Assembly (NCBI RefSeq): GCF_003334335.1
Contig: NZ_QOWQ01000007.1
Reading direction: 5' to 3' (one strand)
Length of the DNA stretch: 64,000 nucleotides
Source of the DNA: Escherichia coli
Lineage (GTDB): Bacteria > Pseudomonadota > Gammaproteobacteria > Enterobacterales > Enterobacteriaceae
Shown here: positions 3,801 through 46,558 of the stretch, one piece after another
Layout of the letters: the number at the start of each line of letters is the position of its first letter
How positions within the stretch are numbered: the stretch's first letter is position 1
Translations under genes and position numbers: made by a program
Notes under the pieces: generated by a model
What the model was told of the DNA's origin: nothing
What the model saw: the letters and a program-made list of their open reading frames with translations, nothing else
The model's database searches: none

Positions 3801-11783
<7,983 letters not shown>

Positions 11784-40101: not shown

Positions 40102-43426
<3,325 letters not shown>

Positions 43427-43640
43427 CGCGCACCTCGTGGCTGATTATGGACGGCGTTATTGGCAAAGTGGAACAAGACTCACTCCCGGGTCAGCAAACT
43501 CGAAAAATTGACGCTGCCATTATTTGTGCTTTCGTTTTTTTCTATCCGCCAATAAACCCGTTTTTTTGTTGCTATTTAGCGCCTTTGTCTTATTGACTTA
43601 CTGGTAGGCTTTGCTACCAGAAATTATCCAGGAGACGAAA
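43427..43640. promoter_or_regulatory. divergent fliF / fliE class-2 promoter region
   Basis: Intergenic region between divergently transcribed fliF and fliE; no motif verified. Confidence 0.4.
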
Positions 43641-43955
43641 ATGTCAGCGATACAGGGGATTGAAGGGGTTATCAGCCAGTTACAGGCTACGGCGATGAGT
43701 GCGCGTGCGCAGGATTCACTGCCGCAACCGACCATTAGTTTTGCCGGGCAGCTGCACGCCGCGCTCGATCGCATTAGCGATACACAAACAGCTGCCCGCA
43801 CGCAGGCAGAAAAATTCACCCTCGGTGAACCCGGCGTGGCGTTAAACGATGTGATGACCGATATGCAAAAAGCCTCAGTTTCTATGCAAATGGGGATTCA
43901 GGTGCGTAATAAGCTGGTGGCGGCGTATCAGGAAGTGATGTCCATGCAGGTGTAG
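43641..43955 (+). CDS. fliE: flagellar hook-basal body protein FliE
   Basis: ORF track 43611..43955; start trimmed to [10 protein letters not shown] (104 aa). Confidence 0.9.
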
Positions 43956-44347
43956 GTTTTGTAACCTGTTGTTAATTACATCCCATCTGCCCGCGTGGGG
44001 CATGGATGGGGCAAACTCACCCTATTTCTGGTTTAAAATGGATACCTGATCCTGAAAGTTTTCTGCCATCCACGATCCGTATACGCGATAAACCCTCTGA
44101 TCATCAGAGGCCTCATTTGATACACATCACCACGTCGGATGTTGTTACGACCGCAGACGCAACAGTAACGTTTGAATAATTTAATCTTTGTTGATGTTTT
44201 TATTCATATTCCGGGCTAGGGAAATAATCAGGCGTAATTGTGTCACTGGAATAGAGGTTTCTTGTGGCGCATGTGGAAGGAGCGTCTACTTTGTCTAATA
44301 GAGATTTCTTATGACGCAGTATTATTGATCAATAGTCTCCTGGCTTA

Positions 44348-45016
44348 TCAAACCGGTTGAATTAACTCCGCTCCCTGGTTTTTGATATTACCCACCGCGC
44401 GCGATACCGGGTGCCAGGAGAACTGGTTTGCTGGCACACAGCCACTGGCCGCGATTTCTGAGGCTTCTTTACCGCCAATGTCTTGCCGCATCCATTCCCG
44501 CGCAGCTTCTGGCGACAGTACCAGTGGGCGGCGGTCATGAATGTCTACCAGACCCTGGTCTGCTGCAGCAGTGACAATTAAAAATCCTTCGGCTTCGTCA
44601 CCGCGCTCAAACGGTGTGCTACCTATCGCGGCCATAAAAACAGGTTGTCCATCAGCGCGATAGATAAAATAAGGCTGTTTTTTGTCGCCTTCTTTTTTCC
44701 ACTCAAACCAGCCATCGGCAAAACAGATTGCCCGACCATGTTGCCAGAGCGGTTTAAACATGCGACTGGTGGCCGCAGTTTCTACGCGGGCGTTAATCAG
44801 CGGCGGTTTATCCCACCATCCGGGAGCATATCCCCAGAAAACCGGATCCAGATGAAGGTGTTCATCACGTTCACTGAGCAGAAGAACTTTGGTTCCCGGC
44901 GCGACGTTGTATCTGCCAATGGGTTCGGGATCGTAGGGAATATCGCGTTCAATATCTTCCGCGAGAAGCGCAAGGTAATCTTCACGCGTTTGGGATTGGG
45001 CAAAGCGTCCACACAT
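44348..45016 (-). CDS. yedK: SOS-response-associated peptidase (abasic-site DNA-protein crosslink protein)
   Basis: 222-aa ORF beginning MCGRF (catalytic Cys2). Confidence 0.9.
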   Translation of the reverse strand: MCGRFAQSQTREDYLALLAEDIERDIPYDPEPIGRYNVAPGTKVLLLSERDEHLHLDPVFWGYAPGWWDKPPLINARVETAATSRMFKPLWQHGRAICFADGWFEWKKEGDKKQPYFIYRADGQPVFMAAIGSTPFERGDEAEGFLIVTAAADQGLVDIHDRRPLVLSPEAAREWMRQDIGGKEASEIAASGCVPANQFSWHPVSRAVGNIKNQGAELIQPV

Positions 45017-45122
45017 AGAAACCTCCTGAGATCATACTGAAAAGAATAGGAGAGGGGGCGGGTAAAATCTATGTGTCAGAGGCAACGATGTTCCCGCTGT
45101 GGGCCACAGCGGGAATGAGGGA

Positions 45123-45356
45123 TTACTTCTGAATTAAATAACGAATGGTCGGCCCGTCTTGCTGAATATCCAGCACCGTATAGCCGTGATTACGCGCATC
45201 CAGTGGAATATTATTGATCGACTGTGGACAGTCGCTCACCACTTCCAGGATTTCCCCTTTTTTTAACTGCGGCATCGCCTCAAGAGTTGCGACTGCCGGA
45301 TAAGGGCAGGGTTCACCCACCATATCAAGGCGGTAATCAGGAACGATATTTTTCAT
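45123..45356 (-). CDS. yedF: TusA-like sulfur-carrier protein
   Basis: 77-aa ORF with CPYP motif (GEPCPYPAV). Confidence 0.9.
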   Translation of the reverse strand: MKNIVPDYRLDMVGEPCPYPAVATLEAMPQLKKGEILEVVSDCPQSINNIPLDARNHGYTVLDIQQDGPTIRYLIQK

Positions 45357-46558
45357 GCGATCTCCTTAGCAGTCTGCGGTGCCGCACGGCGGAAGAAGCG
45401 TTTTTCCCAGCCGATAATCAACATCAGCGCAGTAAACAACAGCAAATATGTCACCAGCAGGCCACCCATCGGGCCAAAGGTTTTCAGCAGGTTGATTTTG
45501 TCCCAGTCGGTGGCCAGCGCCGGAGCGAAATCATCCCAGTAATACGCCAGAATCGTTGAGCCGATCACGTTGCCCAGACCGACCCACCAGTAGTGCACCT
45601 GGCCTTCTACCGCGCGGTACATCCAGCCGGTTTCGCAGCCGCCTGCCAGCACGATGCCAAAACCAAACAGTAAACCACCAATTACCGCGTTTGGTCCCGC
45701 CCACATGATTTTGGGTTCAACGCCTAACTGTACGTAACTGAAGATCCCGATGGCACTCACCGCCATACCAATAATGATTGCTTTCGCCATATGGGTACGT
45801 CCGGTGATCCACATATCGCGGAACGCTGAAGTAAAGCAGATTTGCGCACGTTCAATCAGTAAACCAAAGCCGACGCCAAACAGCATTGCCAGCCCCAGTT
45901 TGGGTTGGTTCATCGCCGTGAGCAGCGCCCAGCCCAGCATGCCGAAAAAGACCAGCATCCCGAGACGAAAACGACGCCGCGCCTGATCCGGTTTTTGCGT
46001 CAGCGGTGAGGCGGCAGAAACTTTCTGCATTTTCACGGGAATACGGAAGATGGGCAGCAGGGTAAAGCGCGCGCCAAACCATGAACCAATGGCAGTGGCG
46101 ATGGCAAAGAACCAGGCATGCAGCGAGAACTGAGGAATGCCGGTAAAGAACGCCGCCAGGTTACAGCCCATTGCTAGACGCGCGCCAAAACCGGCGATAA
46201 TGCCGCCAATAATGGCCTGCATAATGCGGATACGGCTGCGCGGCATGCGTAGTTTGACATTGTTGGCCCACAGTGCTGCGGCAAAGCAGCCGCCAAACAT
46301 GCCGAGGATCATCATCCCGTCGATGCGGGTTAATGGCGATCCTTCCAGATGGATAATTTTAAAATAACCCCACTCTTCAGCATGGACGCCAAACAGCTGC
46401 AGGAGCTGACCGCCCCAACGGGTAAATTCACCCGTGACAGCCCAAAAGGTGCCAGTAATGCCAAAATAGTAAGTGGAGAGAATACCCGCCGCGATGACCG
46501 CAGGGATGGGTGCCCAGAATTTAATCAACCAGGCGTGTTTGAATTGCTGCCATGACAT
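45353..46558 (-). CDS. yedE: YeeE/YedE-family membrane transporter (thiosulfate/selenium-related)
   Basis: 401-aa multi-TM ORF overlapping yedF start. Confidence 0.85.
   Translation of the reverse strand: MSWQQFKHAWLIKFWAPIPAVIAAGILSTYYFGITGTFWAVTGEFTRWGGQLLQLFGVHAEEWGYFKIIHLEGSPLTRIDGMMILGMFGGCFAAALWANNVKLRMPRSRIRIMQAIIGGIIAGFGARLAMGCNLAAFFTGIPQFSLHAWFFAIATAIGSWFGARFTLLPIFRIPVKMQKVSAASPLTQKPDQARRRFRLGMLVFFGMLGWALLTAMNQPKLGLAMLFGVGFGLLIERAQICFTSAFRDMWITGRTHMAKAIIIGMAVSAIGIFSYVQLGVEPKIMWAGPNAVIGGLLFGFGIVLAGGCETGWMYRAVEGQVHYWWVGLGNVIGSTILAYYWDDFAPALATDWDKINLLKTFGPMGGLLVTYLLLFTALMLIIGWEKRFFRRAAPQTAKEIA

Follow-up and report, generated by a model that had tools for sequence, protein, structure and literature searches.

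The 392-bp spacer between fliE and yedK in this E. coli contig is best read as the worn-down left (attL) end of an old lambdoid prophage in the 3' end of fliE, and as a common allele of a polymorphic island; we put the probability of this reading at about 0.88. The spacer is not an empty site but an attL end, since an attachment core is followed there by phage integrase sequence. It is ordinary and falls within known biology, and the relic that it holds is already annotated in K-12. The result corrects an annotation-level idea: the gap keeps an integrase relic together with a putatively usable phage attachment core, yedL and yedN/yedM are not core genes, and intG is close to fixed in E. coli. 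As a modestly useful by-product, the 3' end of fliE is clearly defined as a live attachment site.

Genes and spacer at the fliE-yedK locus

The window, by which we mean the whole 64,000-nucleotide stretch analyzed, covers flagellar region III of E. coli. In it, fliF (41768 to 43426, minus strand) is followed by fliE (43641 to 43955, plus strand; WP_001274295.1), which has 104 codons and a TAG stop codon at 43953 to 43955. On the other side of the spacer are yedK (44348 to 45016), yedF (45123 to 45356) and yedE (45353 to 46558), all on the minus strand. The yedK product is an SOS-response-associated peptidase that is matched end to end by NCBIfam NF007413. Both fliE and yedK are present in the open reading frame list and in the RefSeq annotation, and the gene names are those given by RefSeq to a genome with 100% identity over 43600 to 45050. 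Between yedK and yedF, at 45091 to 45115, two perfectly complementary 12-nt arms (TTCCCGCTGTGG / CCACAGCGGGAA) form an inverted repeat around a 1-nt spacer.

The convergent fliE and yedK leave 392 bp between them (43956 to 44347). A reading made from the sequence only had described a short, AT-rich spacer with no credible open reading frame. The description holds for length and coding content: the longest open reading frame in the list encodes 57 aa and runs antisense to the integrase relic. It holds in part for base composition, as the GC content of 0.426 is below that of fliE (0.546) and yedK (0.531) and the AT-richness is therefore only modest.

An attachment core at the 3' end of fliE

Alignment of the window with K-12 and two phages defined an attL-type att core at 43936 to 43971 (TGATGTCCATGCAGGTGTAGGTTTTGTAACCTGTTG). 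The 36 bp consist of the last 20 bp of fliE, including the stop codon, and 16 bp downstream, and they contain the inverted repeats CAGGT/ACCTG and AGGTT/AACCT. The sequence agrees at all 36 positions with the attP core of Escherichia phage IdasGreatGrand and with the attL of an intact prophage in E. coli UTAK-1. In IdasGreatGrand, a single base separates the int stop codon from the core, this placement being that of a lambda-type attP. CobraSix, an Enterobacter phage, carries the Enterobacter version of the core (…ATGGGCATGCAAGTTTAG…), which fits the Enterobacter FliE C-terminus VMGMQV. When the window, K-12, IdasGreatGrand and CobraSix were aligned, the phage homology extended past the end of int into the core.

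The core is present in a single copy in the 64-kb window. No second core (attR) was found within the 64 kb at up to 3 mismatches, and the best match to a degenerate attR in 43972 to 45400 was 15/28, no better than in shuffled sequences. Given its sequence identity to phage cores, the intact core would make the site a usable attB for present-day phages.

Codon 101 of fliE (Ser, 43941 to 43943) is TCC in the window and in the IdasGreatGrand attP, versus AGC in K-12; two bases differ, and both codons encode Ser. In the UTAK-1 lysogen, the same codon is TCC in attL and AGC in attR. The difference may reflect att recombination with phages, by which some lineages would have acquired a new fliE end. 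Since the last fliE codons lie inside the attachment site, gain or loss of a prophage can rewrite the end of this flagellar gene without breaking it.

An integrase relic directly after the core

The integrase relic (43972 to 44119, minus strand) is encoded opposite to fliE, 17 bp past its stop codon. It corresponds to ~45 codons at the C-terminal end of a tyrosine integrase of the lambdoid type (Int residues ~387 to 432 of 434 by tblastn). The first 164 bp of the spacer matched the 3' end of the IdasGreatGrand int at 84.7% nucleotide identity (E 2e-48), and the start of the spacer also matched CobraSix at 80.6%; in both phages the match spans the last ~50 codons of int and continues beyond its stop codon. 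The phage database search returned nothing for the right-hand 228 bp, beyond spacer position 164. The IdasGreatGrand integrase is assigned to phrog_1, a tyrosine integrase family, and the window fragment matched phrog_27762 (E 2.9e-11). At these E-values, a chance resemblance to integrase genes is ruled out.

The relic carries an in-frame stop, its minus-strand translation being ...VYRVYGSWMAENFQDQVSILNQK*GEFAPSMPHA, for comparison with ...VYRVYGSWMAENNQDQVSILNQKLSEFAPSMPHAVGSDVIKQA* at the C-terminus of the IdasGreatGrand Int. An 11-bp gap relative to the phage takes out the integrase stop codon in the window relic. By its position, homology, tyrosine-integrase origin and truncated, non-functional state, the fragment is K-12 intG, or 'cryptic prophage PR-G', and PGAP annotates an 'integrase' pseudogene at the equivalent place in other strains. 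K-12 intG (b1936) shares with it the position directly after fliE, the strand and the truncated C-terminus. The relic itself is essentially no different from K-12 intG; what differs is the neighboring DNA, which in the window is without yedN/yedM and yedL.

The order of the fliE end, the core and an int 3' end reading towards the core is, judged from sequence, that of an attL junction. As in a lambda-type attL, the core repeats the final codons of the gene that is targeted, and int reads towards the core; unlike a lambda-type attL, the window keeps only the last ~45 int codons, without an attR and without any other phage gene. Phage 21 and e14 integrate in a similar manner into the 3' end of icd and rebuild the gene.

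Two other descriptions of the site were considered and rejected. An unoccupied attB would have one copy of the core, as found, but the integrase 3' end abuts the core, so the flank is phage-derived. A resident prophage bounded by attL and attR does not fit a locus that has no attR and no phage genes beyond the int fragment; the spacer contained no other phage gene and no open reading frame above 57 aa.

Two blocks of the K-12 interval are missing from the window

The distance from the yedK stop codon to the fliE stop codon is 2,210 bp in MG1655 versus 392 bp in the window. The MG1655 annotation of the interval lists yedL (b1932), the yedN pseudogene (b4495) and the intG pseudogene (b1936), and the feature note 'cryptic prophage PR-G' on 2012502-2012663 is the sole K-12 prophage annotation here. 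The K-12 gene content of the interval, including yedM and yedN_1/yedN_2, is given likewise in PMC5122947.

Pairwise BLAST of the window against a K-12 derivative (L001) gave three collinear pieces, in which window positions 43600 to 44225 correspond to L001 1501-2125, 44222 to 44288 to L001 3338-3404, and 44289 to 45050 to L001 4008-4769. The identity between 43900 to 44225 and L001 1801-2125 was 93.3%, and the first 270 bp after fliE, including the whole of PR-G/intG, are kept in the window at ~93% identity. The first extra block of K-12 (1,212 bp) holds yedN/yedM, a frameshifted DUF5503 LRR pseudogene of an EspR-like effector. The second (603 bp) holds yedL, a GNAT acetyltransferase gene.

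The sequence-only reading had placed extra K-12 genes between fliE and yedK and had taken them to be lacking in this strain. The MG1655 annotation and the pairwise BLAST bear this out for yedL and yedN/yedM, and the alignment confirmed that fliE and yedK are not directly adjacent in K-12. The reading had gone further, to a site that lacks the K-12 cryptic-prophage genes and is either unoccupied or cleanly deleted, and here it failed. The intG/PR-G relic is retained at 43972 to 44119 with ~93% identity, and the window is collinear with K-12 across intG; the strain is without yedL and yedN/yedM yet not without PR-G/intG. Behind the att core come 148 bp from the 3' end of an integrase gene, and the site is therefore not unoccupied. 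One clean deletion is likewise contradicted, as two separate blocks are missing and 67 bp are kept between them.

The segment that follows the relic (44120 to 44225; 106 bp, GC 0.387) was collinear with K-12 and O157 by blastn, and in K-12 and O157 it sits between intG and the region upstream of yedN/espR4. The phage database search found no homologue of it outside the E. coli island. At junction 1 (44217 to 44229), K-12 has an additional 1,212 bp (80 bp of upstream sequence plus yedN/yedM) and O157 has an intact espR4. This junction has no sharp boundary: a possible TATG microhomology gives way to diverged bases.

The 67-bp segment (44222 to 44288) corresponds to the intergenic stretch of K-12 and O157 that runs from the yedN/espR stop codon to yedL, with 94 to 95.5% identity to L001 3338-3404 and to 9001-9067 of the O157 180-PT54 locus (L008). 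In the latter, espR4 ends at 9002, and the 67-bp segment thus begins at the espR4 stop codon. At junction 2 (44288/44289), K-12 has the additional 603 bp with yedL; the break is sharp and shows no microhomology. The remaining 59 bp, 3' of yedK (44289 to 44347; GC 0.339), are common to K-12.

Both junctions were searched for direct repeats, inverted repeats, target duplications and att-like sequence, and only short chance matches were found. The suspicion of att-like scars in the sequence-only reading was broadly right, as the 36-bp core overlaps the 3' end of fliE, but at the two junctions its proposed search for direct repeats or att-like sequence yielded nothing. A site-specific excision scar, a further candidate, was ruled out by the absence of such sequences. 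The difference between the window and K-12 is not an assembly artifact, since the same contiguous junction is found in 1,014 complete E. coli genomes.

Alleles of the island in E. coli

Frequencies were obtained by megablast among 5,426 complete E. coli genomes, and all counts are lower bounds. The fliE-yedK query matched in at least 5,380 genomes and the int relic in at least 5,029. The window-type short junction (uninterrupted 44160 to 44347) was present in at least 1,014, or about 19%, including O26:H11 11368; O121:H19 FWSEC0006 also has a fliE-yedK interval as short as that of the window. At least 1,314 genomes carry the yedL block and at least 1,542 the LRR block. Each block is also found singly, yedL alone in AST85 and the LRR pseudogene alone in Survcare045, and all four combinations of presence and absence occur. 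The K-12 arrangement is one minority allele among several, and the window allele is common. In AST85, PGAP places an 18-codon 'cyclic lactone autoinducer peptide' just 3' of yedL, inside the 603-bp block (L019 1187-1243), which is probably a spurious call of a small open reading frame.

The espR4/espR3-yedL island of O157:H7 shares the int relic, the 106-bp and 67-bp segments and the yedK-proximal DNA with the window. Its other components, which the window lacks, are yedL, intact LRR effector genes and a tandem duplication; in O157 and O55, espR4 and espR3 are both intact and lie in this duplication, in which the int relic is repeated. The duplicated unit of O157 180-PT54 is ~1.96 kb long and comprises the int relic, an espR gene, the 67-bp segment and part of yedL. 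Its relic copies lie at L008 7533-7679 and 9481-9637, and the second copy begins at the equivalent of window position 43972, directly past the att core.

The allele of ST131 and APEC O78 shares the att core with the window, as well as the initial ~120 bp of the relic, as far as window position 44091. Its cargo is wholly different, consisting of emrE-ybcL-ybcM and an IS200/IS605 element, and homology resumes at 44349, on the yedK side. The DLP12 prophage of K-12 also has emrE-ybcL-ybcM, and the cargo resembles it. The allele was located at L004 20700-23971 in ST131 MNCRE44 and at L005 7601-12012 in APEC O78, with tnpA/tnpB of the IS200/IS605 type. A second integrase fragment (Int aa 210 to 277, at about 40%) lies beside the relic in this allele. 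The ST131 yedK is annotated as incomplete, and the IS200/IS605 element is just upstream of the break.

Proposed history of the spacer

In the history that we propose, a lambdoid prophage would have integrated into the 3' end of fliE, rebuilding fliE and placing the 3' end of its int after the core. It would then have decayed to the att core and the last ~45 int codons, broken by a stop, which is what is called intG or PR-G. The rest of the spacer would be leftover island DNA common to K-12, from which the 1,212-bp and 603-bp blocks would have been lost by two separate illegitimate deletions in an O157- or K-12-like island. The present spacer may have no function except to accommodate the 3' end of fliE and the ends of the two convergent transcripts.

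It was considered that the missing blocks may have been lost in the window lineage. On the other hand, the window arrangement may be the older one, with the LRR-effector and yedL blocks each added later, through recombination with incoming DNA, in the lineages towards K-12 and O157. Later addition is consistent with the minority status of both blocks (1,542 and 1,314 of 5,426 genomes), with the existence of all four presence/absence combinations with the lack of deletion-type microhomology at junction 2, and with the location of the region near fliC, a recombination hotspot. However, it requires two independent single-gene insertions 64 bp apart that brought no mobility genes, target duplications or terminal repeats, and the coincidence of the left end of the 67-bp piece with the espR4 stop codon is more easily seen as leftover intergenic DNA. 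We therefore regard later addition as a tentative and rather unlikely alternative.

Loss of the two blocks from the window is probable and is the order of events that we favor. All segments of the window are contained in the K-12/O157 arrangement, the left end of the 67-bp piece falls on the stop codon of an intact espR4, and the missing blocks are without mobility genes, inverted repeats or target duplications. The yedL-less junction of L020 and of UTAK-1 (L021) also differs from that of the window, which argues for deletion; an L020-type junction could be derived as well from a window-like sequence by a further loss of ~47 bp. Neither window junction bears a diagnostic deletion signature, junction 1 being fuzzy and junction 2 lacking microhomology.

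Alternatively, the spacer may have been kept because it contains some functional element that annotation has missed, be it a small RNA, a small protein or a regulatory site. In favor of this, at least 93% of genomes conserve the int relic, and the core contains a hairpin-like inverted repeat. However, an Rfam search over 43400 to 45200 returned nothing at E ≤ 1, a consensus scan found no promoter-like or terminator-like sites, and the RNA folding of both spacer ends was no better than that of shuffled sequence (z = -0.88 and +0.84). The conserved stretch carries a stop codon, and common descent from a single integrase gene accounts for its conservation, which makes a retained functional element very improbable.

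That the site is empty, or that the whole K-12 prophage remnant was cleanly excised to leave an att scar, would suit a short spacer with no open reading frames, a single core copy and no yedL or yedN, but it is refuted by the integrase homology at 43972 to 44119, where 148 bp of integrase 3' end follow the core, and by the retention of PR-G/intG with two separate blocks gone around 67 bp, and we give it almost no credence.

The fliE attachment site in present-day phages

In phages of this integrase family, attP copies the last fliE codons and 16 bp of the downstream sequence. Since attP holds this copy, integration rebuilds fliE and puts the int 3' end directly after it. A full-length int of this type abuts fliE in six complete E. 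coli genomes, of which UTAK-1 was inspected. In UTAK-1, fliE and the old int relic are separated by a complete lambdoid prophage of 38.7 kb whose head genes are P22-like, and beyond the relic come an intact LRR gene and then yedK. The core copies are at L021 806-840 (attL) and L021 39531-39565 (attR), and attR is flanked by phage sequence on its left and by the old relic on its right. The complete prophage at fliE in UTAK-1 indicates that the site is still in use. The prophage (L021 841-39530) contains two tRNA genes, and a tailspike gene adjoins attR.

A scan of species-representative genomes gave nine loci, among which those of Escherichia other than E. coli were covered up to the int relic. 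In Pseudenterobacter timonensis, a full-length int adjoins fliE. In Lelliottia sp. and Enterobacter wuhouensis, a full-length int adjoins the core, and fliE is outside the fetched stretch. Enterobacter cloacae DSM 26481 has the order fliE, int relic, acyltransferase, umuC fragments and yedK. In CobraSix, umuD/umuC-like genes flank attP on the other side, and the umuC fragments of E. cloacae accordingly resemble the right-hand end of such a prophage, the integrase fragment looking like the other end of the decayed element. If the E. cloacae locus is read as a decayed prophage, yedK looks like the host gene beyond the site in Enterobacter too. The E. cloacae relic (locus L009 6105-9927) is a 186-aa internally deleted integrase, and the acyltransferase is of the membrane type.

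These loci suggest with good confidence that the fliE 3' end is a conserved and still-used attachment site for lambdoid or P22-like phages that share one integrase type, across Escherichia, Enterobacter, Lelliottia and Pseudenterobacter, with attP copying the last fliE codons of each host. The intG relic of E. coli would then be the residue of one such integration, and the Ser-codon switch may be a footprint of gene-end replacement. In the literature searched, no paper was found on PR-G or on the fliE attachment site, and the site may be recorded elsewhere.

Two further matches came from assemblies under other names. A contig of a 'Lachnospiraceae MAG' (SFGN01000137.1, L012) contains E. coli fliE, int-relic and yedK sequence, and a 268-bp Nocardioides malaquae contig (L016) contains E. 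coli fliE and int-relic sequence, both at E. coli-level identity. From this identity, the two look like E. coli contamination of those assemblies.
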